Shown piece after piece: positions 3,022-32,256 of a stretch of DNA of 40,858 nucleotides. Location of the stretch: NCBI GenBank assembly GCA_049521535.1, contig JBEKOS010000001.1, forward strand, positions 1 through 40,858, written 5' to 3'. Position 1 is the stretch's first letter, and each line of letters opens with the position of its first letter. The stretch is from Terriglobales bacterium (GTDB lineage Bacteria; Acidobacteriota; Terriglobia; Terriglobales; Acidobacteriaceae). The notes beneath the pieces are model-generated. The model was given only the letters and a program-made list of their open reading frames with translations, had not been told where the DNA came from and ran no database searches. A program made the position numbers and the translations under genes.

Positions 3022-3096
3022 CTATTTGTAGTTGGCAATTTGTAATTTGCAAATGGCGCCGCAACACGACATCATTTGCAGGCTGCCGGGACTGAC

Positions 3097-4542
3097 ATGA
3101 AACACGAAGTCGGGAAATTAGCGCCCACGGTTGCCGTGGTTGGCGGTGGACTGGCGGGTCTGGCCGCCGGCACTGCCCTGGCGAGCGCCGGCTTCAAGGT
3201 CACACTGCTTGAGCGCAAGCCTTTCCTGGGAGGACGCGCCTCGTCCTATGAACTTCCCGGTGCCGACGAGGTCGTGGACAATTGCCAGCATGTTGTGCTC
3301 GGCTGTTGCACCAACCTGATCGACTTTTACCGTCGCATCGGCGCCAGCGATCTGGTGCGCTGGTACGACCATCTTACCTTCATTGAACCGGGCGGACGGC
3401 AGTCTGTCATTTCCCCGAGTTGGCTGCCGGCGCCGTTTCACGCGGCGCGGTCCTTCCTGCGTGCGCCGATGCTTGCAGGTCCGGACAAAAGGGCAATCGC
3501 TCGGGCCCTGGCCGCGTTTGCATCGAGATTGCCTGCCGATGATGGAAGGCCATTTTCCCAATGGCTGCTTGACCGGGGACAGTCCGCAGGCGCCATTGAG
3601 CACTTTTGGAAACCAGTACTGGTGAGTTCTCTGAATGAGGACCTGGAGCGCATTTCCCTGCCGGCTGCCGCCCTCGTTTTTCGCGAGTCGTTCATGAAAT
3701 CTGCGCAGGGCGGCCGCATGGGACTACCGCGGGTTCCGCTGTCCGATCTCTACTCGCGGGCGGGAGAGTATATCCGGGCAAATGGCGGCACAATCGAAAT
3801 GCGCGCCGCCGTGGAGCAAGTGGAGCCTTTTCAGGAGAAGGTCTTGTTTGCCCCGCGACTGTATGCCAGAGTCTCCGTGAACAACGTATCACAAATGTTT
3901 GACTACGCGGTTTCTGCGCTGCCCTTCGATCAGTTGATGCGGATTCTGCCTGACGTACCGGAGCTACAGGGCTTACGCACCCAGTTGGGGCGTTTTGAAA
4001 CCACGCCAATAACCGGCATTCATATCTGGTTTGACCGCCAGATCACGAAGCTCGATCACGCTGTGCTGCTGGATCGCACCATTCAATGGATGTTTCATAA
4101 GTCTCGGATACTGGGGACCCATCGCCAGGACGGTAGCGAAGGCACGAATGGTAGCTACGTCGAACTTGTGGTCAGCGCATCCAAGTCGCTGGTGGACCTA
4201 TCCCGCAAGGAAATTATTGAAATGGCGATTCAGGAATTGGTGGAATTTTTCCCTGCGGTCTGGGAGGCACGTCCGCTCAAAGCGACCGTCGTAAAAGAAA
4301 TCAACGCGACGTTTGCGCCACTGCCTGGCGTGGATGCAAATCGCCCACCAGCGCAAACTCCATGGCCCCGCGTTTTTCTCGCCGGGGACTGGACTGCCAC
4401 CGGCTGGCCGGCAACTATGGAAAGCGCAGTCCGCAGCGGATATCTGGCGGCGGAGGCAATCTGCCGCACCGAAGGAACTCACCAGCGCTTCCTTGTGCCT
4501 GATCTGCCACCTTCGGGATTCATGCGGCTCCTCGGTAATTGA
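3097..4542 (+). CDS. FAD-dependent oxidoreductase, HpnE-like (hydroxysqualene dehydroxylase family)
   Basis: Rossmann motif VAVVGGGLAGLAAG, LGGRA, and the block DNCQHVVLGCCTNL typical of HpnE-type amine-oxidase-fold enzymes. ATG 3097 is preferred over TTG 3076. Confidence 0.7.
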   Translation: MKHEVGKLAPTVAVVGGGLAGLAAGTALASAGFKVTLLERKPFLGGRASSYELPGADEVVDNCQHVVLGCCTNLIDFYRRIGASDLVRWYDHLTFIEPGGRQSVISPSWLPAPFHAARSFLRAPMLAGPDKRAIARALAAFASRLPADDGRPFSQWLLDRGQSAGAIEHFWKPVLVSSLNEDLERISLPAAALVFRESFMKSAQGGRMGLPRVPLSDLYSRAGEYIRANGGTIEMRAAVEQVEPFQEKVLFAPRLYARVSVNNVSQMFDYAVSALPFDQLMRILPDVPELQGLRTQLGRFETTPITGIHIWFDRQITKLDHAVLLDRTIQWMFHKSRILGTHRQDGSEGTNGSYVELVVSASKSLVDLSRKEIIEMAIQELVEFFPAVWEARPLKATVVKEINATFAPLPGVDANRPPAQTPWPRVFLAGDWTATGWPATMESAVRSGYLAAEAICRTEGTHQRFLVPDLPPSGFMRLLGN

Positions 4543-4578
4543 GACCGTTTCGAGCAGAAGCCGGGTGAAATCAATTTT

Positions 4579-5280
4579 CTATGACTGTTCCTCCAGCATT
4601 GGATTTGCTCGTGACCAATAACGCTGGTACGAGCGGTACACACCATACATCAACGGCAACACGCCGACTGCATACCAACCGATATACATGGATGCCGCGA
4701 GTACAATTGCCGCGAGGCCGGCGCTGAGCACGAAGTAAGGGAAGGTCAGGCTGAAAATCTCGCGCCACACTTTCGAGAATCCCGCCTCGGCAGTCGGATC
4801 CGTTGCCGCTATTACCAGTGAGACCGGAAGCGTATCGCCGAGGAAGAACGCTGCAGTCGAGGCCATAACCAACAGCGCGCCGGTCGCAACTGGAAGGTGA
4901 TGGGCTTGATGGAAGGCCAGTCCGGCAAATCCCGTGGCGTTTAACACATTACAAACGTTGAAAATGATCTGAACGGGCCGCTGACGATGTTTGCCAGGCA
5001 AGCACTGCACCAGAGTGGAAAGTCCGGCTACTGCCAGTGCCTCACCAAAGCTGAGTCCTGCCAGCGCGACCAGTATGAAGGGCAGATTCATGGACATGGA
5101 GCCTTCTAGCCCCGGCAGTGTGACCTTGAATCGCGCAGCTACGCCAGCTATCAAAAGGAGAATGCCGAATCTGGTCGCGTCTGCGGAATGAAATCCCCGC
5201 AGGCCGGCGCCCATCACCGCCAGGCTGCATAACACCACTGCGCCGATTATGAGTGTTGCGAACCGTGAGCTCTTTAGCAT
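4579..5280 (-). CDS. polytopic (~6 TM) membrane protein, unknown family; paralogue of 7714..8439
   Basis: 233 aa. AAGGAGG lies 5 nt upstream of the ATG, and the gene starts 32 nt downstream of subtilase 1. Blocks shared with the paralogue: PGLEGSMS-NLPFIL-ALA-LSFGEA, LSTLVQCLP, RPVQ, AFHQA, WREIF-LTFPYFVLS, YGVYRSY. Confidence 0.8.
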   Translation of the reverse strand: MLKSSRFATLIIGAVVLCSLAVMGAGLRGFHSADATRFGILLLIAGVAARFKVTLPGLEGSMSMNLPFILVALAGLSFGEALAVAGLSTLVQCLPGKHRQRPVQIIFNVCNVLNATGFAGLAFHQAHHLPVATGALLVMASTAAFFLGDTLPVSLVIAATDPTAEAGFSKVWREIFSLTFPYFVLSAGLAAIVLAASMYIGWYAVGVLPLMYGVYRSYQRYWSRANPMLEEQS

Positions 5281-5312
5281 GGGATCCTCCTTTCTAGGCC
5301 ATGCTCACGGTC

Positions 5313-7082
5313 TTAGTTTTCGCCGTAGATTGCGACCGTTGAACTCTCGCTATCATCAGTGGTGCTCTTACCCCAGACGACTGACTGCCCCCAGACTGTG
5401 CCGAATCCCTGGCTGGAACTTGTGCCCCAGACAGCAGCATTGCCCCAGAGGACACCGTCGTCGTTGAGCAAAGCTTGGGTGCCCCAAACATTCGTTTCCG
5501 ACCACGCTCCCGAAGTGGACCAGACGGCGGGCGCTTCGGTAACCAGGGTGACGGTCGTACTTCCGTTCTTGGTGCTGTAGTTCACGGGCGGCGACATGGC
5601 GGCGCCGACAGTATTGGGCGCCAATGCACTGCTGTTCAGCGCGGTCTGAATGTCGAGGTATCCGGCGCCTATGGTGAACACATCATATTGTTCGTTGTAA
5701 GTAATTCCGGTTGTCGGATCAGTAGCGGTGCTGTACATCGGAAAGGCCTTGTAGGCGCTGATCATCATCCGCGCCTTCACCTGGTCCGGCGTGAGATTAG
5801 GCTGCTGTTGCAACATCAGCGCGGCCGCGCCGCTGACAACGCCGGTGGCCATGCTGGTGCCACTGAGTTGAAAGTACTCGGATGAGGGCGAACTGCTCCC
5901 GCCGGTCTGGTACAGAGAGTATGGGTCTATATTGGCTGGATAGGTGGCGGACAAATACGTTCCCGCTCCATAAAGCGACGTGATGCGATTGCCCGGCGCT
6001 ACGATATCGGGCTTTGCGATGTGGTCCAGGGGCGATGGTCCTTTGGAACTGTAGCTGGTGATTACGTCATCGGCGCGGCTAAGTGTTCCCATGGTATTCA
6101 TGGCGCCGACGGTAATCACGTAAGGGTCATTGCCCGGCGCATCGATGGTGAGATACCCATTCGTGTTAAATGTGGTATCACGTCCGTCGTTGCCAGCAGC
6201 GACTACCACCACGATTCCAGCTTTCCAGGCCGATTCGACGGCCTGGCAAAGCGGATCCTGCGCATAGCTTTCCTCTACGGGGCGTCCCAGCGATAGGTTG
6301 ATAACTCGAATGTTATAGGTTTTCTTGAGATTGATTGCCTGTGAAATTGCATTGATGACGTCGCTGTCCTGGCCCGCACCGGTTCCATTCAGGACACGGA
6401 GGTTTACCAGGTTTACATTCGGCGCGACCCCATCGAAGGTATAAAAATACTGGCTTCCGGTCGAATCCTTGCCGTCACCCCCGATGATGCCGGCCACGTG
6501 GGTCCCATGACCGTAAGTGTCATTTGCGCTTCCGCCGGCATTGTTAACCAGATTCTGACTGTAAACCACGCGGTTTCCCAGGTCGGCGACGTTCATCACG
6601 CCGCTGTCAATTACGGCCACTCCAATGCCGCTGCCATTAAGGCCCAGGTTCCAGGCGTAACTGGCGCTCACCGCCTCAGGATAGTAATCCAGCGTCAGCG
6701 ACGAACTGGTGCTCATGGACTGTAAATGACGATCGGGCGAAATGTAAGCGACCTCCGGCTCCTTGCTCAGTTCCTCCAGGGTGCTGGCAGGGATCGAGAA
6801 CTTGCCGGCCTTGATGAAATCGAAGCGAGTCCGCAGCGTCCCGCCGTGTGCACGCACCTTGTTAAAATGCCGTTCGGTAGGCGCCGTGATGAATTGGATA
6901 ATCACGTCAACTGGCGCAGCACTCGATAGGTCAAGGTCGCTTGCCAACTTCGCCGACGCGGCTGCCCTCGCGGGCGAAGGGCTGGACGCCGGGTGTGACT
7001 CTGCACCAAAGGCCGGAATGACGGCCGTGGTGATCATCAATACTGTTGCGATTAGCCATGAAAATGTGTTGTTTCTAGTCAT
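5313..7082 (-). CDS. secreted S8 (subtilisin-family) serine peptidase with I9-like propeptide and C-terminal W-G repeat tail (cassette 1)
   Basis: Signal peptide MTRNNTFSWLIATVLMITTAVIPAFG. Catalytic motifs VAVIDSGV, HGTHVAGIIGG, INLSLG and SGTSMATGVVSG. The ATG at 7082 aligns with the paralogue start, and the TTG extension to 7121 is disfavoured. Confidence 0.9.
   Translation of the reverse strand: MTRNNTFSWLIATVLMITTAVIPAFGAESHPASSPSPARAAASAKLASDLDLSSAAPVDVIIQFITAPTERHFNKVRAHGGTLRTRFDFIKAGKFSIPASTLEELSKEPEVAYISPDRHLQSMSTSSSLTLDYYPEAVSASYAWNLGLNGSGIGVAVIDSGVMNVADLGNRVVYSQNLVNNAGGSANDTYGHGTHVAGIIGGDGKDSTGSQYFYTFDGVAPNVNLVNLRVLNGTGAGQDSDVINAISQAINLKKTYNIRVINLSLGRPVEESYAQDPLCQAVESAWKAGIVVVVAAGNDGRDTTFNTNGYLTIDAPGNDPYVITVGAMNTMGTLSRADDVITSYSSKGPSPLDHIAKPDIVAPGNRITSLYGAGTYLSATYPANIDPYSLYQTGGSSSPSSEYFQLSGTSMATGVVSGAAALMLQQQPNLTPDQVKARMMISAYKAFPMYSTATDPTTGITYNEQYDVFTIGAGYLDIQTALNSSALAPNTVGAAMSPPVNYSTKNGSTTVTLVTEAPAVWSTSGAWSETNVWGTQALLNDDGVLWGNAAVWGTSSSQGFGTVWGQSVVWGKSTTDDSESSTVAIYGEN
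5316..5528 (-). repeat. coding repeat: seven W-containing short repeats (five WG, two WS) forming the last ~71 aa of subtilase 1
   Basis: AVWSTSG-AWSETN-VWGTQALLNDDG-VLWGNAA-VWGTSSSQGFGT-VWGQSV-VWGKSTTDDSESSTVAIYGEN. On the + strand this appears as recurring GCCCCA(G/A)A motifs. Confidence 0.7.
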
Positions 7083-7124
7083 CGTCCTCTTCCTCTCGTT
7101 GCGAATTTCCTCGAATGTCAATCT

Positions 7125-7382
7125 TCAGTTCTTGTAGAAGTTGGATATGTCAGCATCCTTTGTCTTCCCTTCGATCTCGGCGGCATGATTTGCAGGAATC
7201 GTGGCCTGCATGAGATGGATCAGAGGCGATGCTCGCCGGGGTGCAGCGGGACGGGCGGTTGGCGTTTCCCTTGCAATACGATGGAAACCGAGCGCATTTT
7301 TCGAGGTTCCTTCCGCCGTTACGACCACCAGGAGGGCTGCTACCAGAATTGTGATCGATAGCACCTTGTTCGTCGTTTTCAT
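7125..7382 (-). CDS. small secreted hypothetical protein (85 aa), first gene of cassette 1
   Basis: GGAGG lies 8 nt upstream of the ATG at 7382. Signal-peptide-like N-terminus MKTTNKVLSITILVAALLVVVTAEG. It ends just upstream of the subtilase RBS. There is no counterpart in cassette 2. Confidence 0.55.
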   Translation of the reverse strand: MKTTNKVLSITILVAALLVVVTAEGTSKNALGFHRIARETPTARPAAPRRASPLIHLMQATIPANHAAEIEGKTKDADISNFYKN

Positions 7383-7408
7383 TTTCTAAGCCTCCGCCCT
7401 TCGACAGA

Positions 7409-7425
7409 TTGCACGGACAGTGCCA
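7409..7425 (-). promoter_or_regulatory. sigma54-type -24/-12 promoter of cassette 1
   Basis: The minus strand reads TGGCACTGTCCGTGCAA. GG and GC have exactly the consensus spacing of TGGCAC-N5-TTGCW. 14 of 17 nt are identical to the element at 10341..10357. Confidence 0.6.
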
Positions 7426-7440
7426 GATCCAAGCAAGTCA

Positions 7441-7453
7441 TAAGTTGATGATT
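7441..7453 (-). promoter_or_regulatory. IHF-like site between enhancer and sigma54 promoter (cassette 1)
   Basis: The minus strand reads AATCATCAACTTA against the IHF consensus WATCARNNNNTTR (one mismatch). It lies 16 nt upstream of the -24 element. Confidence 0.45.
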
Positions 7454-7517
7454 CTTATTGAAGGTGGCGTTGCAAGGACCCACGACCTGGGACAAATCGT
7501 CTTTAACTTGCGGACAC

Positions 7518-7536
7518 TTGGGACAATCCGTCCCAA
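7518..7536. promoter_or_regulatory. palindromic putative enhancer/operator TTGGGAC-N5-GTCCCAA (cassette 1)
   Basis: Perfect 7+7 inverted repeat TTGGGACAATCCGTCCCAA. An extra half-site TGGGACAA lies at 7488..7495, 31 bp away. The same motif and spacing occur upstream of cassette 2. Confidence 0.5.
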
Positions 7537-7713
7537 CGACTGATTTTGCGATTGCCTGAGTTCCGCCGGTAATAAAACGCGAGAAAGAACTCGCTGCTAA
7601 GTGACGCTTATGAATGCGGATCAAACGGACACAGACAATCATGACGGTGGAGTGTCCCGATGGGCCAACATTGGATGATGAAGGGAACGGAGGGCGGGAG
7701 AGGACAGAAAGTT

Positions 7714-8439
7714 CTAAACGGATGCGTCGGCGGAGCGGGTGTTAACCTGACCAGATTTCTCGATGCCAGCCCAATAAGCTCGATATGACCGATACACTCC
7801 GTACATGATGGGCAACATGCCCAGGGCGCACCATCCAGCGTACTCTGAGGCCGCGATGACGATACGAGCTACACCCGTGCTTAGCACAAAATAGGGAAAC
7901 GTTAAGCCGAAAATCTCGCGCCAGTTACGAGCCATTCCGCGAAACGGTGCCGCTTCCGTTGCCGCAATGACAATTGCGACAGGAATGGTATCGCTTACGA
8001 AGAATAACGCGGCGGCAGGTACCACCATGAGGGATGCGGCGGCGGCCGGCAAGCCGCCTGCCTGATGAAAAGCTACGCCTGCCAATGCGGTGGCGTTGAC
8101 CATGTTGCAGGTATTGAAGAGAAACTGAACCGGCCGCATCTTGTAGCCGTTACGCGGCAAGCATTGCACCAGGGTCGACAAGAGGGTAATGAGAATCGCC
8201 TCTCCAAAACTGAGTTTGGCGAGCGCGATGAGAATGAAGGGAAGGTTCACTGACATGCTTCCCTCGAGGCCCGGCATTGCAATTCTAAGCCGCGAAGCCA
8301 CGAGTGCCATGGTCAGGAGCACGGTAAAGAAGGTGAAGTCCGCGATCCGAAAGCTCCGCAGCCCGCAGCCGAGTGCCACCAGGCTGCCCAGCAAAACCGC
8401 GCCGACAACCCATCCCGTTAATCGTGAGCTCGTCTTCAT
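7714..8439 (-). CDS. polytopic (~6 TM) membrane protein, unknown family; paralogue of 4579..5280
   Basis: 241 aa, downstream of subtilase 2 after a 124-nt gap. It shares long identical blocks with the 233-aa paralogue, for example 23 of 27 residues in (M/L)PGLEGSMS..LSFGEA. Confidence 0.8.
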   Translation of the reverse strand: MKTSSRLTGWVVGAVLLGSLVALGCGLRSFRIADFTFFTVLLTMALVASRLRIAMPGLEGSMSVNLPFILIALAKLSFGEAILITLLSTLVQCLPRNGYKMRPVQFLFNTCNMVNATALAGVAFHQAGGLPAAAASLMVVPAAALFFVSDTIPVAIVIAATEAAPFRGMARNWREIFGLTFPYFVLSTGVARIVIAASEYAGWCALGMLPIMYGVYRSYRAYWAGIEKSGQVNTRSADASV

Positions 8440-8495
8440 GACGTTTCTCTTCAGTAGCAGGCTGCTATCGACGTGTCCACTCTCACCCTGGGTAA

Positions 8496-8531
8496 GCAGG
8501 TAGTCAGCGGTGTGTGACCGTTACTACCTGC
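8496..8531 (-). other. intercistronic hairpin between subtilase 2 and membrane protein 2
   Basis: GCAGGTAGT (8496-8504) pairs with ACTACCTGC (8523-8531), and an inner CGGT/ACCG pair extends the stem. No U-tract follows, so it is not a classical terminator. Confidence 0.3.
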
Positions 8532-8563
8532 TGCCTGCCAACTGTAAAAGATCTCACGATTTA

Positions 8564-10291
8564 CTAGTCGCCAGTCAAAACAGCCATGCCGGCATCGGGA
8601 GCGCCGCTCTTGCCCCAAACCACCGACTTGCCCCACAACACGCTGGTCGCTTCCACCGCCATGTTGCCCCACACGGCCTCCGCAGCGCCCCAAAGTTGTG
8701 AGCTGCCGGCGAGCGTAACGGAAGTGCCCCAAACCGAAGAAATTGACCAGGTCGAGGAAGAGCTTCCCAGTACCGAACCAGTAGCGGGAACAACTTGTAC
8801 CGACCCGCTGTAGCTGAAGGTGGCGCTGGGCGACATGGCGCTGCCCACCGTGCTCGGCGCCAGCGCGCTGCTGGAAAGCGCCGCCTGCACATTCAGGTAG
8901 CCCGCGCCTACGGTGAAGATATCGCTTTGCGAATTGTAGGTAAAACCGGCAGAAAAGACGCTGGTGTAGGGCTGCAAGGTCTTGCTGGCGGTCAGCATGA
9001 TCCGGGCTTTCACCTGGTCGGGCGTCAGTGCCGGTGTCTGCTGCAGCATGAGGGCGACAGTGCCGGCCACCGCCGGGGTGGCCATGCTGGTGCCGCTCAG
9101 CATGAAGTAGGCGCTGGAAGCAGCGCTGGTGCCGCTGGTCTGATAAGTCGAGGTGGGCACCACGTTGGTGGGTTCCTCGCCGTACAGCGTGCTGCCGGGA
9201 ACGCACAACGAGATGATCTGATTGCCCGGGGCCACGACGTCCGGCTTCACGATCTGATCGACCACGGTGGGCCCCTTGGAACTGTAGCTGGCGATCTGGT
9301 CATCGGCGGGACTGGGCGTGCCGTTGGTGTTCATAGCGCCGACGGTCAGGACATAAGGATCATTGCCGGGCGCGTCGATCATGCCGTAGCCATTCTCGCC
9401 ATAGGTATTGTCGCGGCCATCATTGCCGGCGGCAACGACCACCACGATCCCGTCCTGCCAGGCGGCTTCGACGGCCTGGCAGAGGGGGTCCTGAGTATAG
9501 CTCTCATACACTCCCCGTCCCACGGAGAGGTTGATGATGCGGATGTTGTAGGTGCTCTTCAGCGCCATGGCCTGATCAATGGCGGCGATGATGGTGCTGT
9601 CGGCGCCGGAGCCGTTCTCGTCGAGCACACGGAGGTTGACGATGTTGACGCTGGGGGCCACGCCTTTAATCGTGAGGCTGTAGCCAGACCCGGAGGACTG
9701 CGCACCATTGCCGCCGAGGATGCCGGCGACATGCGTGCCATGGCCATACAGGTCGGTGGTGGTGCTGGTTTCGCCGGGGACAAAGCTCTGGTTATAGACC
9801 ACGCGTGAACCGAGGTCGGGGTTGGGCAAGATGCCACTGTCGATCACGGCCACGCCAATGCCCGCGCCATTGAAGCCCAGGTTCCAGGCATACGCGGTAT
9901 TGATGGTGTTCTGATAGTTGTCAAAATACTGCGAGGTGTGCGTCTTGGTCTTGCGGTCGGGAGAAATGAAGGCCACCTCAGGATCGTTCGCCAGCTCCGA
10001 CAGGATTCTGGGGGAAACGGTGAACACCGCGCCCTTTACGCTGTGGAACTGAGATTTCAGCTTGCCGCCGCGGCTGAGTACTTTGTCGATATGGTGCTGG
10101 CTGGGCTTGGCGGTGAACTGCACAATCACGTCCACGGGCTCGGATTTGGTGGTGTCGAGGTCCAACGCAATTTTGCCGTTGTTGGCCCGGGATATCTGTC
10201 CCCAGAGCGCGCTGGCATTCGCCAAGGGCGAAATGCTCAGCACCAGGACTAAAGTTGCGATCCATCCGAATCTCTGATTTCTACTCATCAT
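8564..10291 (-). CDS. secreted S8 (subtilisin-family) serine peptidase with I9-like propeptide and C-terminal W-G repeat tail (cassette 2)
   Basis: Signal peptide MMSRNQRFGWIATLVLVLSISPLANA. Catalytic motifs VAVIDSGI, HGTHVAGILGG, INLSVG and SGTSMATPAVAG. GAAGGAGAG RBS. Long identical blocks with subtilase 1, for example QDPLCQAVE.AW..GIVVVVAAGNDGRD. Confidence 0.9.
   Translation of the reverse strand: MMSRNQRFGWIATLVLVLSISPLANASALWGQISRANNGKIALDLDTTKSEPVDVIVQFTAKPSQHHIDKVLSRGGKLKSQFHSVKGAVFTVSPRILSELANDPEVAFISPDRKTKTHTSQYFDNYQNTINTAYAWNLGFNGAGIGVAVIDSGILPNPDLGSRVVYNQSFVPGETSTTTDLYGHGTHVAGILGGNGAQSSGSGYSLTIKGVAPSVNIVNLRVLDENGSGADSTIIAAIDQAMALKSTYNIRIINLSVGRGVYESYTQDPLCQAVEAAWQDGIVVVVAAGNDGRDNTYGENGYGMIDAPGNDPYVLTVGAMNTNGTPSPADDQIASYSSKGPTVVDQIVKPDVVAPGNQIISLCVPGSTLYGEEPTNVVPTSTYQTSGTSAASSAYFMLSGTSMATPAVAGTVALMLQQTPALTPDQVKARIMLTASKTLQPYTSVFSAGFTYNSQSDIFTVGAGYLNVQAALSSSALAPSTVGSAMSPSATFSYSGSVQVVPATGSVLGSSSSTWSISSVWGTSVTLAGSSQLWGAAEAVWGNMAVEATSVLWGKSVVWGKSGAPDAGMAVLTGD
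8567..8752 (-). repeat. coding repeat: W-G/W-S short repeats forming the last ~62 aa of subtilase 2
   Basis: TWSISS-VWGTSVTLAGSSQ-LWGAAEA-VWGNMAVEATS-VLWGKSV-VWGKSGAPDAGMAVLTGD. Confidence 0.7.
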
Positions 10292-10340
10292 TAGCTCTCC
10301 TTCACTTTCCTCTCGAAGAGGACAAACACAGCAATCTCAG

Positions 10341-10357
10341 TTGCACGGTCATGGCCA
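10341..10357 (-). promoter_or_regulatory. sigma54-type -24/-12 promoter of cassette 2
   Basis: The minus strand reads TGGCCATGACCGTGCAA with GG/GC at consensus spacing. It lies ~50 nt upstream of the subtilase 2 ATG. Confidence 0.55.
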
Positions 10358-10373
10358 TCCGATGCGGTGCGGC

Positions 10374-10386
10374 TAAGTTGTTGATT
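10374..10386 (-). promoter_or_regulatory. IHF-like site (cassette 2)
   Basis: The minus strand reads AATCAACAACTTA, a full match to WATCARNNNNTTR. It lies 17 nt upstream of the -24 element, the same placement as in cassette 1. Confidence 0.5.
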
Positions 10387-10418
10387 TTGGGACTTAGGTA
10401 AGCCGGCCGTCGCTGCGA

Positions 10419-10437
10419 TTGGGACAAGATGTCCCAC
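10419..10437. promoter_or_regulatory. palindromic putative enhancer/operator TTGGGAC-N5-GTCCCAC (cassette 2)
   Basis: TTGGGACAAGATGTCCCAC, with an extra half-site TGGGAC at 10388..10393, 32 bp away. Confidence 0.5.
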
Positions 10438-10712
10438 AGAATGAGACGAACGAGACAGCTTTTCCCATCGAATTCGACGTTTTCGCTGTTTGCTTGCGCG
10501 GGTCGTCGTACGGAAGCCCTCGCCGGGGCCGGGCGGGCCTGGGGCAATTGGCCGAGGCTTGTAGATGAAGCCGTTACTTCAGTACCTGGTCCTGGTGCTG
10601 TCCTTTGGTAATTAATCAGAAACCGTGAGCGCACGCTAGCATGAACCAGACAGTGTATAGGTGTTGGGCCTGGCTGGATTACAGGCCCGGTGTCTTGGGA
10701 GACAAATAGGCG

Positions 10713-12467
10713 ATGCGATTACCCACGCGAATTCCGATTCTCTATTTAATGTTGGGAATACTGGTTTTGGTCAGCGTTGTTCCGATGTATTTCTATGCGA
10801 GTTGGGTTGTCAGCACCAATCGTGAGGCTCTGAAGGTTAACGAGCAGTTACTGGAAAATGAAATCACCCGCTCGTTGCGCGAGGATATTGGTCAGCGCCA
10901 GAGCAGCCTGCATACCGTGCTTGGTAACTTTAGCGCCGCGGTGGGTATTGCGAGTGGCGGCAACCTGAATGGCGACAAATTAAACTCCAAGGAAATGCAA
11001 GCGCTGTTGGAGAAATTCGTGGTTTCGTCCAGCGATCTCGCCTATGTCGCCCTCCTCAACCCTGACGCCAAGTTTATTTCTGCGGGGCGCGTGCAACCTG
11101 ATGGTTTTATGCAGAAAGAGGTCGAACGCGCCTTCAAAGCCGCACGCGACGGGCGGACCTATGAGGGAGAACCGCTCTCGCTAGGCTCGGGACAGAACAC
11201 TCGTACGCTGCTTCTGGTAAGCGCCCCCATTGTTGTGAACGGCAGCTTTGTTGGGAGTATTGCCGCGTTTGAAGACCTGCAATTTCTAGTTGATCGCCTG
11301 CATGCCAATCAGGACGGTGGCTTAACGGCTTATGTGGTGGACCGGCAGGGGCGGCTGGTTGCGGGGGCGTCATCAGGTTATGCGACCGGACAGGACATGA
11401 CCAGCAGCGAGATTGTAAAGAACTTTGTCGATCAGGCTGGAAAAGTGCAATTTGCTTCGACGATGGAGTTCAATGCCACGGTGGGCAAGCAAAAAAACCG
11501 CATGTTAGGAACATACTCTGTCGTGCCGGCCCTCGGCTGGGCGGTGGTCGCCCAAAAGTCGTTGCAGGATGCGTATCAGGGCGTTTATCACATGCAGTGG
11601 TTGGCGCGTGAACTAGCCCTGCTGACCATTCTGATCAGCATGATCATTTCGGTATGGTCGGCCAGAAGCATAACCAAGCCTCTGGATGAACTAATTGAAG
11701 GGACTCACGCGATTGCCCGTGGTGATTTCTCGCAACGAGTAAACCTAAAGAGCCGCACTGAAATTGCCGACCTTGCGCATACCTTCAATCGGATGACCGA
11801 GAGTTTGCAGAAATTTGTCGCCGACCTGAAGCACGCTGCCGAGGAAAATCGCGCGCTATTCTTCAGTTCCATCCAGATGCTCGCTGGTGCGGTCGACGAA
11901 AAAGATCCCTATACGCGCGGCCACTCCGATCGCGTCACGCGCTATTCCGTCCTGCTCGCGCAGGAGCTGGGATTGAGTCAGCAGGAAATTGAGACCGTTC
12001 GCGTGGCAGCACAACTTCATGATGTGGGAAAGATCGGTATCGAGGATCGCGTACTCAAGAAGCCCGGTGCGCTTTCGGCTGAGGAGTTTGAACTTATGAA
12101 AGCGCACACTACGAAAGGCGCTAATATCCTGCGGCCGGTTCAGCAACTGAAGGAGATGATCCCCGGAATCGAGCTTCATCACGAAACTCTCGATGGAAAC
12201 GGTTATCCTTACGGGTTGCAAGGCGACGAAATCCCGTTGCTCGCCCGCATTATCACCGTGGCCGACGTCTTCGATGCAATGACAACTCATCGGCCTTACC
12301 AAACGGCCATGGATCCTGACGATGTTGTGCGGAGGATCAACGCCAAGGCGGACATTAAGTTCGATCCACACGTGGTCCGGGCGTTGATGTCTGTGTTTGA
12401 CCGCGGTGAACTGCTCGAAGACGGCTTCTATGCGGAGAGAGAAGTGCCAGCGGGCGTAGGCGTTTAG
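10713..12467 (+). CDS. membrane-bound sensor HD-GYP phosphodiesterase (Cache-like periplasmic domain, HAMP, HD-GYP)
   Basis: 584 aa. Two TM helices flank a ~270-aa extracytoplasmic domain, followed by HAMP (ITKPLDELIEGTHAIARGDFSQRV). HD-GYP motifs are intact: HSDRV, LHDVGKIGI, HHETLDGNGYPYG. Confidence 0.9.
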   Translation: MRLPTRIPILYLMLGILVLVSVVPMYFYASWVVSTNREALKVNEQLLENEITRSLREDIGQRQSSLHTVLGNFSAAVGIASGGNLNGDKLNSKEMQALLEKFVVSSSDLAYVALLNPDAKFISAGRVQPDGFMQKEVERAFKAARDGRTYEGEPLSLGSGQNTRTLLLVSAPIVVNGSFVGSIAAFEDLQFLVDRLHANQDGGLTAYVVDRQGRLVAGASSGYATGQDMTSSEIVKNFVDQAGKVQFASTMEFNATVGKQKNRMLGTYSVVPALGWAVVAQKSLQDAYQGVYHMQWLARELALLTILISMIISVWSARSITKPLDELIEGTHAIARGDFSQRVNLKSRTEIADLAHTFNRMTESLQKFVADLKHAAEENRALFFSSIQMLAGAVDEKDPYTRGHSDRVTRYSVLLAQELGLSQQEIETVRVAAQLHDVGKIGIEDRVLKKPGALSAEEFELMKAHTTKGANILRPVQQLKEMIPGIELHHETLDGNGYPYGLQGDEIPLLARIITVADVFDAMTTHRPYQTAMDPDDVVRRINAKADIKFDPHVVRALMSVFDRGELLEDGFYAEREVPAGVGV

Positions 12468-13065: not shown

Positions 13066-14061
13066 ATGGCGAAAATCCTCACATTGTTTGGCAGCCTGGA
13101 AGAACAGGAAAAACAAAAACAGCCGCTCGACAAGAAGGGCGGCCTGTTTGAGCGTATGAAGCAGGCGGTCACTCGCACTCGTGAGAACCTGAGCGAGCGA
13201 ATTGACGAGGTGGTCTCCGTCATTCCATTGGGCAAGGAGATCGACCGCAGCACTCTCGACATGCTTGAGGCTACGCTTATTGCAGCGGATCTCGGCTCCA
13301 AAACCACGCAGGAAGTGCTGAACAAGTTGCGCGAAAGGGCCGACCGAAAGCAGATTCAGGATGTGGATGAACTCAAACGGCTGCTGAAGCATGAGCTTCT
13401 GGAGATTCTTTCCCGCGCGAATACGCCGCCGATTGCTGCTGAAGAAGGTGAACCCGAAGTGATCCTAGTAGTCGGGGTGAATGGCACCGGCAAGACCACA
13501 AGCATTGGCAAGCTGGCACAACGATTGCACGAACAGGGGAAGACCGTAGTGCTGGCGGCTGCCGATACTTTTCGCGCTGCCGCCATCGAGCAACTTGAGA
13601 TCTGGGGACAGCGGACCGGCGCCGAAGTAATCAAGACCAAGCCCGGTGGCGACCCTTCGGCGGTACTATTTGATGCCCTTCAGGCGGCCAGAGCGCGGAA
13701 TCTCGACTATGTGATAGTCGATACCGCCGGACGTTTGCATACCAAAACCAGTCTGATGGATGAACTTGCGAAAATAAGGCGAACGGCGCAACGCTTCATC
13801 CCGCGCGCCCCTCACGAAACCTTGCTGGTGATGGACGCCACTACCGGGCAGAATGGCCTACAACAGGCGAAATTGTTTACGGAATCAGCCGGGGTCACAG
13901 GAATTGTACTGACCAAACTAGACGGCACCGCCAAAGGAGGCGTCGTGGTAGCTATCTCGCGCGAGCTGGGGGTGCCGGTGCGTTTCGTTGGAGTGGGCGA
14001 AAAAGCTGGCGATCTGCTGCCATTTGATCCGGTAGAATTTGTGGATTCGTTGTTTACATAG
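13066..14061 (+). CDS. ftsY: signal recognition particle receptor FtsY
   Basis: SRP-GTPase motifs [21 protein letters not shown] and [10 protein letters not shown], with a short acidic N-terminus. Confidence 0.95.
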
Positions 14062-29862: not shown

Positions 29863-32256
29863 TCAATAAATCAGATATTTGGCCCTGATCTTTCGGAATT
29901 CTTCGAGTGCGTCCATCCAGTCTTCAGCAATCCGGCGTGGATCCCGGCCATCCCTAAGCGCGTCAAAACTTGCCTGGTTCACCAGCAGTAAGTCCAGTTT
30001 TTCCATCTTGTATTCCGCCGGATAAAGTGTGTGCAGGGCCGATGCCAATTCAAGGCCCAACTCGGGTGCGTCGAGCACGTTGCGGTCTACCACGATGATG
30101 TTGACCCCGCCGCAGTTTTCCCTCGCATATTGATTGGCATTCGGCATGAAGCTTCTCGGTACAAAGCGCACGCCGGAAATCGCGCGGGCGTTTAGATACT
30201 TCGCCAGTCCCAGCGAGTTAATCCAGGGTGCGCCGACCAATTCGAAAGGCGTGTCAGTGCCCCGGCCGACCGAGACGTTGGTTCCTTCAATGAGTCCTAC
30301 ACCGGAATAGAGCGTCGCCGCAGTCAGGCTGCGTATGTTGGGCGAGGGATCGATCCATCTCATGCCGGCAGAGTCATACCAATCGCCGCGCATCCAGCCC
30401 TGCATGGGGACAACTGTCAAATTAGCGTGGATGCCACGTTCCTCGTTGTACAACTTCGCCAGTTCCCCGATGGTCATGCCGTGACGCAATGGGACTTGAC
30501 CGTAGTTGACGAAGCTCTCGTGGTTCGGGTCGGGCATCGTCCCTTGCAAGTACGCGCCGCCAATCGGGTTCGGCCGGTCAAGCACAAAGATCTCCTTGCC
30601 CGACTTGGCCGCCGCTTCCAGGAAGTAGCCAAGCGTGGATTCATAGGTATAAAAGCGAACGCCTATATCCTGAATGTCAAAGACAATTGCGTCCAGATCC
30701 TCGAGGTTTTCTGAATTTGGGTGGCGTTTGGCATCCGTGTCGCCGTAAACACTAATGATTGGCGTTCCTGTCGCCCGATCGTGTGAATTTGCGATATCGG
30801 CTGTGTCAGCGGTCCCGGCGATGCCGTGTTCCGGGCTGAAGATGACGGCTACTTCGACGCCGGGTGCTTGTGACAGGACGTCGATGGTGCGGTGGCCCAT
30901 CGCATCCACTCCTGTGTGATTTGTTACCAAACCAACCCGGACCTTAGTTCCGGAGGTTGGATGAAGGTCACTGAAGTTGTGGGTTTCGAGCACATCAATG
31001 CCGGATTTGACCTCGCCGTTACGGAAGTGAACGCGGCGTGCGGCGAACAGAGTTTCGTTGTATCCAGTGATGCGCGCCAATCGAAGTTCGTCGTTTTCAC
31101 TCGAGGTGAGATCAAGGTCGCTTACCACCGCTGTGGCGATGCGTGCCCGCAAAGACGCCAGAGATTTACCGGCATGAGGATGGGCCGCATTAGTCAGAAT
31201 GATGATGCTGGTATGGGTAACAGGGTCAATCCAAAGGGAAGTGCCGGTGAAACCCGTATGCCCGAAGGAGCCCACGGGCAGCATCTCACCCCTATTGCTG
31301 GCAAATGGCGAATCGATATCCCAACCGAGGCCACGCAAACTAGCCGCCGTCGGTGGTTGCTGTGGCGTGGACATCTTCTCTACGGTTTGCTCGCTCAGCA
31401 CCTTGAATCCGCTGAGCATGTCCTGGGCGAACCGGGAAAGATCGTCTGCTGTGGAGAACAGGCCTGCGTGTCCCGCAACGCCGCCCATGCGCCGTGCCGT
31501 GGGATCGTGAACTACGCCCCGCAGCATGCGATGGTGCTCGTCGTATTCCGTTGGCGCAATGCGAGGACGCCATCCGGCGGGAGGGTTGAATTGCGATTCC
31601 TTCATCTCCAGTGGTCCAAAGACTTCTTTCGCGGCAAAATCATTCAGCGACATACCGGAAGCCTTCTCGACGATGAATCCCAGGGCTTCAAAATCAAGGT
31701 CACTGTAGTGGAAAGTCGAACCCGGGGGCAACAGAGGTTTTGACTCCATAATCATACGGTAGGCAGTTTCACGGCCTTCCCAAGGACTCGTCAGATCGAG
31801 GTCATCAGGAAGGTCTGAGAAATGGGTTAGCAAGTCGCGAAGTGTGATGTCACTCTTTCCGTTCTTGCCGAATTCAGGCAGATACGTCGTTACCGGATCG
31901 TTTAGCCGAACTTTGCCTTCCTCCACCAGTTTCATGATCAAAGTAGCGGTCACTACGCATTTGGTAAGGGAGGCAAGGTCAAAGATGGTATCCACCGTCA
32001 TGCGCTCGCGCGTGGGCTCGAGCGAACGCCAGCCGAACGCCTTTCGATAGACGGTCCTGCCGTTGTGCGTGATTAGAACGACCCCGCCAGGAATTGTTCC
32101 TTTTTCGACCGCCTGCTGCATTATTTCGTCGATGTTCTTGAAGTTTGTTCCGGAAGTATCTGCTGGCGGCCCCGGTTGAGCAATTACCGCCGGAAGAGTC
32201 AGGGAGGCAAGAGCGATAAACAGGACGAACCGATTAGCAGGTGTTCTCCCAAGCAC
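29863..32256 (-). CDS. secreted fusion protein: beta-lactamase-fold serine hydrolase (PF00144-type) + DUF1343/NamZ-type exo-beta-N-acetylmuramidase
   Basis: 797 aa with a GTG start and a signal peptide. SxxK (ASLTK), YSD and HTG motifs sit in the N-terminal half. The C-terminal half starts at GIDVLETHNF...VGLVTNHTGVD, typical of DUF1343. Confidence 0.85.
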   Translation of the reverse strand: MLGRTPANRFVLFIALASLTLPAVIAQPGPPADTSGTNFKNIDEIMQQAVEKGTIPGGVVLITHNGRTVYRKAFGWRSLEPTRERMTVDTIFDLASLTKCVVTATLIMKLVEEGKVRLNDPVTTYLPEFGKNGKSDITLRDLLTHFSDLPDDLDLTSPWEGRETAYRMIMESKPLLPPGSTFHYSDLDFEALGFIVEKASGMSLNDFAAKEVFGPLEMKESQFNPPAGWRPRIAPTEYDEHHRMLRGVVHDPTARRMGGVAGHAGLFSTADDLSRFAQDMLSGFKVLSEQTVEKMSTPQQPPTAASLRGLGWDIDSPFASNRGEMLPVGSFGHTGFTGTSLWIDPVTHTSIIILTNAAHPHAGKSLASLRARIATAVVSDLDLTSSENDELRLARITGYNETLFAARRVHFRNGEVKSGIDVLETHNFSDLHPTSGTKVRVGLVTNHTGVDAMGHRTIDVLSQAPGVEVAVIFSPEHGIAGTADTADIANSHDRATGTPIISVYGDTDAKRHPNSENLEDLDAIVFDIQDIGVRFYTYESTLGYFLEAAAKSGKEIFVLDRPNPIGGAYLQGTMPDPNHESFVNYGQVPLRHGMTIGELAKLYNEERGIHANLTVVPMQGWMRGDWYDSAGMRWIDPSPNIRSLTAATLYSGVGLIEGTNVSVGRGTDTPFELVGAPWINSLGLAKYLNARAISGVRFVPRSFMPNANQYARENCGGVNIIVVDRNVLDAPELGLELASALHTLYPAEYKMEKLDLLLVNQASFDALRDGRDPRRIAEDWMDALEEFRKIRAKYLIY

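Follow-up and report, generated by a model that had tools for sequence, protein, structure and literature searches.

MASE domains are widespread membrane sensor modules; for one of them, MASE9, no ligand has been reported to our knowledge. In the definition given by Galperin & Chou, MASE9 is an N-terminal membrane sensor found in HD-GYP, HD-GYP-GAF-GGDEF and GGDEF-EAL proteins; it has eight predicted transmembrane segments, of which two form a short hairpin that does not reach across the membrane, and its ligand is presumed to be bound inside the membrane (10.1101/2021.11.05.467447). Here we analyze a 40,858-nucleotide stretch of a Terriglobales genome (contig JBEKOS010000001.1, hereafter the window) in which, unlike this published N-terminal sensor form, MASE9 makes up a complete protein without an output domain, encoded in a predicted operon after a secreted subtilase of peptidase family S8. 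The window carries two copies of this unit. Its components belong to known families, and their pairing may be a novel form of protease-linked membrane and cyclic di-GMP (c-di-GMP) signalling. No description of an S8–MASE9 association or of a stand-alone MASE9 protein was found in the literature searched; the main text of Galperin & Chou (10.1101/2021.11.05.467447) contains neither 'protease' nor 'Acidobacteri', and its lone 'stand-alone' refers to HD-GYP domains.

Periplasmic proteolysis is tied to c-di-GMP in the LapD–LapG system of Pseudomonas fluorescens, in which LapG is a cysteine protease and LapD combines a periplasmic and a HAMP domain with degenerate GGDEF-EAL domains that act as receptor (PMC3032545, PMC3032553). 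The S8–MASE9 loci have the same adjacency of genes for an exported protease and for an inner-membrane c-di-GMP-domain protein. However, their protease is an S8 peptidase of unrelated fold, their membrane part is a MASE9 domain with minimal periplasmic exposure, and the cytoplasmic part, which in LapD is GGDEF-EAL, is absent in the window and HD-GYP-GAF-GGDEF in relatives. We rejected membership of the LapD/LapG system, the resemblance being one of logic only.

In Bacillus subtilis, subtilisin, Epr and Vpr process the Phr/CSF signalling peptides, which are imported by the oligopeptide ATP-binding cassette permease (Opp). The S8–MASE9 pair has S8 proteases in common with this system, and an Opp/Dpp-type importer is likewise a frequent neighbour. 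Unlike in Bacillus, no separate Phr-like precursor gene was found, the receptor candidate is the membrane-embedded MASE9 rather than a cytoplasmic RRNPP protein, and the hosts are diderm Acidobacteria.

The two subtilase–MASE9 units

Five open reading frames (ORFs) occupy the minus strand between 4579 and 10291, making up two units of an S8 gene and a membrane-protein gene plus one small ORF, and they agree with the two consecutive copies delineated in an initial annotation made from the sequence alone. The four genes of the units are the following:

4579–5280, minus strand: Mem1, stand-alone MASE9 domain of copy 1 (233 residues; PF20972, 25.8 bits)
5313–7082, minus strand: S8-1, Sec-exported pro-subtilisin of copy 1 with a Trp-Gly (WG) tail ending in ..AIYGEN (Peptidase_S8, E 3e-52)
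7714–8439, minus strand: Mem2, stand-alone MASE9 domain of copy 2 (241 residues; PF20972, 29.9 bits)
8564–10291, minus strand: S8-2, Sec-exported pro-subtilisin of copy 2 with a WG tail ending in ..AVLTGD (575 residues; Peptidase_S8, E 4.5e-55)

The S8-1 ORF reaches a TTG at 7121 (5313–7121), and its real start is likely the ATG at 7082, as judged from the Shine-Dalgarno sequence gaggaagagg in front of it. S8-1 and S8-2 are 54% identical over 583 residues, tail included, and Mem1 and Mem2 are 58% identical over 224 residues, in keeping with the substantial divergence first noticed by eye. Because the paralogues are only this similar, the duplication is old rather than recent. Base composition is uniform over the region.

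Both S8 proteins match Peptidase_S8 (PF00082) with E values of 1e-52 to 1e-55 and carry Sec-type signal peptides, with the cuts read from the sequence as falling between ..ANA and S and between ..AFG and A. An alignment of 62 S8 sequences shows no variation at the catalytic Asp D151, His H184 (in an HGTH motif), oxyanion Asn N290 or Ser S402. When the AlphaFold2 (AF2) model of S8-2 was searched with Foldseek, it matched pro-subtilisins, propeptide included (E 1e-25 to 1e-27), for example Tk-SP (3afg). The initial annotation had described S8 peptidases with an I9-like propeptide; the S8 assignment and the propeptide both stood, the latter by model and fold search, while the Inhibitor_I9 hidden Markov model (HMM) gave a weak match in each protein (E about 0.1). 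By triad, oxyanion Asn, fold and propeptide, these are members of the pro-subtilisin-type S8 family. The C-terminally extended enzymes Tk-SP (3afg) and pro-subtilisin E (3whi) share with them the propeptide, the catalytic fold and all catalytic residues; the C-terminal extension sets the window proteins apart, being made of repeated WG hexapeptides that no Pfam family matches, modelled with low confidence, and neither a beta-jelly-roll nor a P-domain. Two other assignments were discarded: the match to the type VII secretion mycosin model TIGR03921 (152–161 bits against an equivalog cut-off of 278.75) reflects generic S8 similarity, and PADLOC, searched for anti-phage defence, gave only generic subtilase and IetS S8-domain matches and none for the membrane protein.

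The odd W-G repeat tail of the initial annotation proved to be a regular feature. It consists of 5–11 hexapeptides of the form S-V-[VL]-W-G-[TS], with WG motifs mostly 6 or 12 residues apart; 307 of 394 WG-to-WG spacings are multiples of 6. Variants such as xAILWGT, EAVLWGT, DMVLWGS and SALWGR are uniform within one protein and differ between proteins. In the AF2 model of S8-2, the propeptide and catalytic domain are well modelled and the tail (residues 528–575) has a predicted local distance difference test score (pLDDT) below 30. No repeat family and no Hexapep match was obtained for the tail in Pfam at E values up to 1, and among PDB sequences there were only marginal matches to left-handed beta-helix proteins resembling gamma-carbonic anhydrases (E 0.011). 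A protein search with the tail alone returned just two matches and is uninformative, since the repeats share few indexed words. We also observed a conserved W-G-[RK] in the n-region of the S8 signal peptides (consensus MxxxxxxxxxWGxxxL...AFA; residues 8–11 of S8-2), an echo of the C-terminal WG.

The membrane partner had been left without a named family. Both proteins in fact fall in MASE9, above the PF20972 gathering cut-off of 24.3 bits, and PF20972 is also the precomputed annotation of many of their homologues. The AF2 model of Mem2 (pLDDT 90.6, predicted TM-score 0.87) has eight helical segments, at residues 4–28, 35–49, 66–75, 78–93, 103–126, 139–161, 169–198 and 204–240, of which 35–49 and 66–75 are short; this agrees with the published MASE9 topology and makes the earlier count of six transmembrane segments an approximate one. 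MASE9 is described as having conserved aromatic (Phe/Tyr) and hydrophilic (Asn/Ser) positions in its membrane core; F38, F68, F108, F147, Y183, S63 and N109, along with K52, E80, Q92 and E162, are conserved here and were compared with these by kind of residue rather than by alignment position. Score, helix topology and close homologues with output domains, and probably the conserved aromatic and polar intramembrane residues as well, are what the window proteins share with the family. The Pfam search thus yielded a named family, itself functionally uncharacterised.

The output-bearing homologues came from a search of 1.84 billion representative proteins with a profile of 90 membrane-protein homologues, which gave 2,993 matches. 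The best 150 of these comprise proteins of about 240 residues (stand-alone), proteins of about 460 residues (two copies of the domain) and longer ones. Nine of ten longer proteins scanned, homologues at E values of 1e-47 or below, continue past the membrane domain into HD-GYP, HD-GYP-GAF-GGDEF, histidine-kinase or hybrid-kinase domains; the tenth, P0262, of the two-copy class, had no Pfam match. The window proteins stop about 20 residues past their last helix and contain no output domain. Since they end there and their homologues bear outputs, they represent MASE9 in stand-alone form. Tandem proteins with two MASE9 domains form a class of their own, with about 28 of 440–475 residues among 144 newly listed profile matches, which suggests that MASE9 domains act as dimers or hetero-oligomers.

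Against PDB structures, the best Foldseek matches of the Mem2 model were S-components of energy-coupling factor (ECF) transporters (probability 1.0, target-normalised TM-score 0.72–0.74 over about 170 residues, root-mean-square deviation 3.4 A). These proteins (RibU 5kbw/3p5n, ThiT, BioY, FolT, CbiM) have a fold like that of the Mem2 model, are small and bind their ligands within the membrane. Mem2 differs from them by extra helices, no sequence similarity to them was detected, and there are no T or A component genes in the neighbourhoods examined. The MASE9 profile had no match among PDB sequences.

Conservation of the pairing and of its upstream motifs

For a gene-neighbourhood census from the membrane-protein side, one genome per species was taken; relatives were present in 186 genomes, and the best 80 were analyzed. 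Related loci gathered in the census carry L numbers, and those with enough upstream DNA were counted as testable. Almost all of the 80 are metagenome-assembled genomes of Terriglobales, Acidobacteriaceae, Sulfotelmatobacter or Angelobacter. In every testable locus (78 of 78), the gene immediately upstream of MASE9, in the same orientation, encodes an S8 protein; the median intergenic gap is 32 nt, and these S8 proteins are 45–55% identical to those of the window, tail included. The flanking genes vary (L001, L005 and the window). Two loci of typical Terriglobales arrangement, promoter motifs included, are binned outside the Acidobacteriota (L051, a Deferrimicrobiaceae bin, and L058, a Verrucomicrobiia bin), possibly through mis-binning or horizontal transfer.

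The pairing extends to MASE9 proteins with output domains. In L086–L090, L095 and L096, found by following S8 orthologues with variant tails on long contigs, these orthologues adjoin MASE9-HD-GYP-GAF-GGDEF proteins of about 806–832 residues, whose first ~220 residues are 30–34% identical to Mem1 and Mem2 (tblastn E 1e-23 to 1e-35; BLASTP E 3e-32 and 6e-35 for the partners in L087 and L090). The fused gene either follows the S8 gene or lies on its upstream side in divergent orientation, and the arrangement of L086 and L096 differs from that of L088, L090 and L095. Locus L092 reads S8-S8-(tandem MASE9)-MASE9-HD-GYP-GAF-GGDEF, with the tandem MASE9 gene at its positions 5001–6389. Stand-alone and S8-linked fused MASE9 domains have 22 conserved positions in common, including K52, S63, E80, Q92, N109 and E162. 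The association thus attaches to the MASE9 domain itself and not to output domains and, since the same protease family partners MASE9 with or without HD-GYP-GAF-GGDEF, we infer that MASE9 is the element coupled to the protease.

The reverse question was addressed by a metagenome scan seeded with the S8 C-terminal region, which gave 80 loci. A MASE9 gene is present in 20 of the 27 that were testable, here meaning that the S8 gene or array was flanked by 1 kb or more on each side; over all 80 loci, 16 MASE9 partners carry a fused HD-GYP-GAF-GGDEF part and 26 are apparently stand-alone. In L148, there is an HD-GYP gene without a detectable MASE9 domain, and in L134, L141 and L154 the S8 gene precedes a transporter cluster. 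Hence this MASE9 subfamily essentially always predicts an S8 neighbour, and S8 predicts MASE9 in roughly three quarters of cases.

Two stricter rules were considered and dropped. A 1:1 stoichiometry of S8 and MASE9, prompted by the window and L092, is ruled out because arrays of two or three S8 genes with WG tails before one MASE9 gene are common (L101, L106, L130, L139, L151, L152 and L159). Linkage of every tail-bearing S8 to MASE9 is ruled out by L114/L115, whose S8 has the canonical tail, and by L169, none of which has a MASE9 gene nearby.

Taken together, unbroken synteny in the genome loci, varied flanks and persistence with fused MASE9 uphold the proposal that the pair works as a functional unit rather than being the product of a recent duplication. 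The pair had also been put forward as an uncharacterised module: the conserved pairing bears this out, and the partner turned out to belong to a named, functionally uncharacterised family.

The initial annotation had also noted that the two copies retain their upstream regulatory architecture. We found a sigma-54-type promoter motif and a perfect palindrome at each copy, along with one terminator-like element:

7410–7425, minus strand: sigma-54-type promoter motif of copy 1 (TGGCAC-TGTCCG-TGCA; pattern search)
7519–7535: perfect palindrome TGGGAC-N5-GTCCCA, candidate upstream activating sequence (UAS) of copy 1
7579–7594, minus strand: terminator-like hairpin with T-run, between Mem2 and the copy-1 UAS (pattern scan only)
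10342–10357, minus strand: sigma-54-type promoter motif of copy 2 (TGGCCA-TGACCG-TGCA; pattern search)
10420–10436: perfect palindrome TGGGAC-N5-GTCCCA, candidate UAS of copy 2

In the whole 40.9-kb window, TGGC-N6-CGTGCA has just two matches, one per copy, and the palindrome also has just two, against 0.15 expected. Related loci carry similar motifs upstream of their S8 genes: TGGC-N8-TGCW is found in 52 of 78 (background 0.046 per 620 nt) and GGGA-N7-TCCC in 29 of 78 (background 0.015). Promoter motif and palindrome are 104–105 nt apart in 19 of 24 distinct examples from relatives, and 78 and 109 nt apart in the window. The consensus of the relatives (loci L008–L078) is ggcGGGACAaacTGTCCCacGCCC ... 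ATTGGCA-N6-CGTGCAC, with the palindrome GGGACA-N3-TGTCCC; this palindrome likewise precedes the first S8 gene of L092. The four fused-type S8 genes that were examined (in L086–L090) showed neither motif in their upstream regions, and such regulation may be confined to L092 and the clade whose MASE9 is stand-alone. We regard promoter motif and UAS as a candidate regulon motif for an enhancer-binding protein; the window itself contains no gene for a bacterial enhancer-binding protein.

A pattern scan showed no terminator-like hairpin between an S8 gene and its Mem gene. Scans for sigma-70 promoters and for terminators gave counts no higher than in shuffled sequence. An Rfam scan of 4000–11000 at E values up to 1 revealed no RNA family and no c-di-GMP riboswitch upstream of either S8 gene.

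A proposed coupling of proteolysis to membrane sensing, and its alternatives

We favour the reading that the pair is a sigma-54-controlled module of protease and membrane receptor, coupling extracytoplasmic proteolysis to membrane sensing; it may well be right, and could equally be wrong. Each unit would be a sigma-54-dependent two-gene operon activated from the GGGACA-N3-TGTCCC enhancer site. The first gene would supply a Sec-exported, catalytically intact pro-subtilisin with a tail of 5–11 hexapeptides, and the second a MASE9 sensor domain without output that would form a cognate protease–receptor pair with the subtilase. MASE9 would perceive, within the membrane, something that comes from the subtilase, most likely released hydrophobic Trp-containing peptides or else the enzyme's own WG tail, and proteolysis and peptide foraging outside the cytoplasm would thereby be coupled to signalling. 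Since MASE9 is fused to HD-GYP-GAF-GGDEF in related lineages, the read-out there would be c-di-GMP turnover. The window receptor lacks an output and would therefore have to act by protein–protein contact; candidates for the contact are enzymes containing MASE9 or HD-GYP, such as the dCache-HAMP-HD-GYP protein encoded divergently next to copy 2, a possible trans-acting output of the window pair. Anchoring, sorting, maturation and sensing had all been suggested for the membrane protein, and we favour sensing over the other three because the partner is a MASE9 sensor domain.

In a more specific version, WG hexapeptides would be cut out of the tail, autocatalytically or by paralogous enzymes, and the Trp-containing peptides would enter the membrane as the cognate MASE9 ligands, giving Acidobacteria a self-contained pair of peptide-signal source and receptor. 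We hold this version to be rather improbable. If true, the signal would feed c-di-GMP turnover via the fused forms, Opp/Dpp would serve for import or clearance of the peptides, and the first ligand for any MASE9 would be in hand.

Several points weigh against the coupling of protease and sensor. Every mechanistic step is drawn from sequence and models, namely that the two genes are co-transcribed and depend on sigma-54, that protease and sensor are coupled physically or through a ligand, which way the signal runs and what the ligand is; what sequence and models display directly is gene content, family membership, synteny, the fused variants, the promoter and UAS motifs and the fold. A stand-alone sensor domain has no obvious output, and the MASE9 model displays only short periplasmic loops and almost no periplasmic surface, so that docking of the folded protease is unlikely. 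The E value of the S-component match is weak (about 0.015, none at or below 1e-3). The tail, with its hexad phasing and marginal beta-helix match, may be a folded repeat rather than a source of peptides. On the genomic side, there is no MASE9 gene within about 3–4 kb in 7 of the 27 testable S8-side loci, L114 with its canonical tail being an example; the common S8 arrays mean that the pairing is not 1:1; and the counts overstate independent support, because the loci are phylogenetically related.

The alternative that survives best reverses the flow of information, from the cytoplasm to the protease, in the inside-out manner of LapD and LapG: on the periplasmic face of the inner membrane, MASE9 would bind the WG tail and so hold or release a periplasmic subtilase, under control of HD-GYP-GAF-GGDEF in the fused forms, and the stand-alone form would be a constitutive anchor or retention factor. 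The gene for an exported protease beside that of an inner-membrane c-di-GMP-domain protein mirrors lapG-lapD (PMC3032545, PMC3032553), and a Trp-rich tail is suited to the membrane interface. The very end of the protease may also point this way, as S8 partners of stand-alone MASE9 follow their tail with a conserved ..I-x-G-E-N C-terminus and the sampled partners of fused-only MASE9 have basic or other endings, and the S8 and MASE9 paralogue lineages show weak concordance (odds ratio 6.7, P = 0.002, without phylogenetic correction). However, LapD uses a dedicated periplasmic domain and MASE9 has almost no periplasmic surface, and the HD-GYP-GAF-GGDEF modules look like active enzymes rather than c-di-GMP receptors. 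Moreover, the stand-alone form has no cytoplasmic input, and two or three S8 genes often share one MASE9 gene. We consider such a tether unlikely.

Alternatively, the module might be nutritional: the subtilases would digest environmental protein under sigma-54 control of the nitrogen-limitation type, an Opp/Dpp system would import the peptides, and the stand-alone protein of MASE9 fold would act alone, in the manner of an S-component, to carry or capture some digestion product instead of signalling. The neighbourhoods lend this some weight. When neighbours were clustered over 85 loci (L001–L091 less four near-identical copies), a SBP_bac_5 peptide-binding protein was encoded directly upstream of S8 in 43 of 85 and an Opp/Dpp-type ATPase in 46 of 85, or roughly every second locus. 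Farther upstream come genes for two permeases, and the importer's one ATPase has an oligo_HPY tail (for example L020, 200–2865). The cluster accompanies the fused type as well, in varied orientation (L088, L090, L095 and L096). The sigma-54-type promoter, the multi-copy S8 arrays and the best fold matches, ECF S-components such as RibU, ThiT, BioY and FolT, would fit too. Against this, the window pairs have no adjoining Opp/Dpp genes, the output-bearing relatives of the domain that were scanned are all signalling proteins, no ECF T or A components occur in the neighbourhoods examined, and the E value of the structural match is weak. A purely nutritional role therefore seems to us distinctly unlikely.

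That S8 and MASE9 are adjacent merely through shared Terriglobales ancestry, with no direct functional coupling, is very improbable: nearly all loci do come from one order, many have the same Opp-S8-MASE9 order and the counts lack phylogenetic independence, but the flanking genes differ (L001, L005, window) and the association has outlasted changes of orientation (L086 and L096 versus L088, L090 and L095), changes of MASE9 architecture (stand-alone, tandem, HD-GYP-GAF-GGDEF-fused) and, in the window, duplication to 54–58% identity.

Flanking genes and significance of the module

The remaining features of the region are an orphan ORF inside copy 1 and the genes on either side:

3076–4542: amine-oxidase-family flavoprotein, flanking gene
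7125–7382, minus strand: small orphan ORF with a signal-peptide-like N-terminus (85 residues)
10713–12467, plus strand: dCache_1-HAMP-HD-GYP c-di-GMP phosphodiesterase (Pfam), divergent neighbour upstream of S8-2
13066–14061: FtsY, flanking gene

The flanks correspond to the hpnE-like gene, c-di-GMP phosphodiesterase gene and ftsY recognized at the outset. HD-GYP genes also flank the pair in L009, L019, L024, L046, L057, L061 and L074, several of them encoding MASE9-HD-GYP fusions; the phosphodiesterase gene near the window pair may thus be part of a recurrent theme and need not be a coincidence.

The small ORF is located between the copy-1 sigma-54 promoter motif and S8-1 and has a good Shine-Dalgarno sequence. 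It has no Pfam, NCBIfam or PADLOC match and no tblastn match across 85 related loci, and it shows no similarity to a small ORF present in L004; it may belong to this lineage alone, or be no gene at all. A 79-residue ORF upstream of S8 in L087 (4690–4929) is not its homologue: it is an S8 fragment (..INLSMGRPVWESYRQDPLC..), the remnant of a duplicated or decayed copy. Elsewhere in the window, at 29863–32256 on the minus strand, a 797-residue protein has an uncommon cell-wall-recycling architecture, in which NamZ_N and NamZ_C (exo-beta-N-acetylmuramidase) are joined to a domain of the beta-lactamase family.

That MASE9 has a constant neighbour in these genomes, an exported protease with a WG tail, provides a concrete and testable hypothesis for its signal, and the conserved sigma-54 promoter and enhancer motif could be used to find the regulator responsible. 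Besides LapD/LapG, the pairing points to a second route that links extracytoplasmic proteolysis with c-di-GMP signalling. Terriglobales, in which the module is common, abound in soils and peat, where protein foraging, exopolysaccharide production and biofilm decisions are ecologically important.

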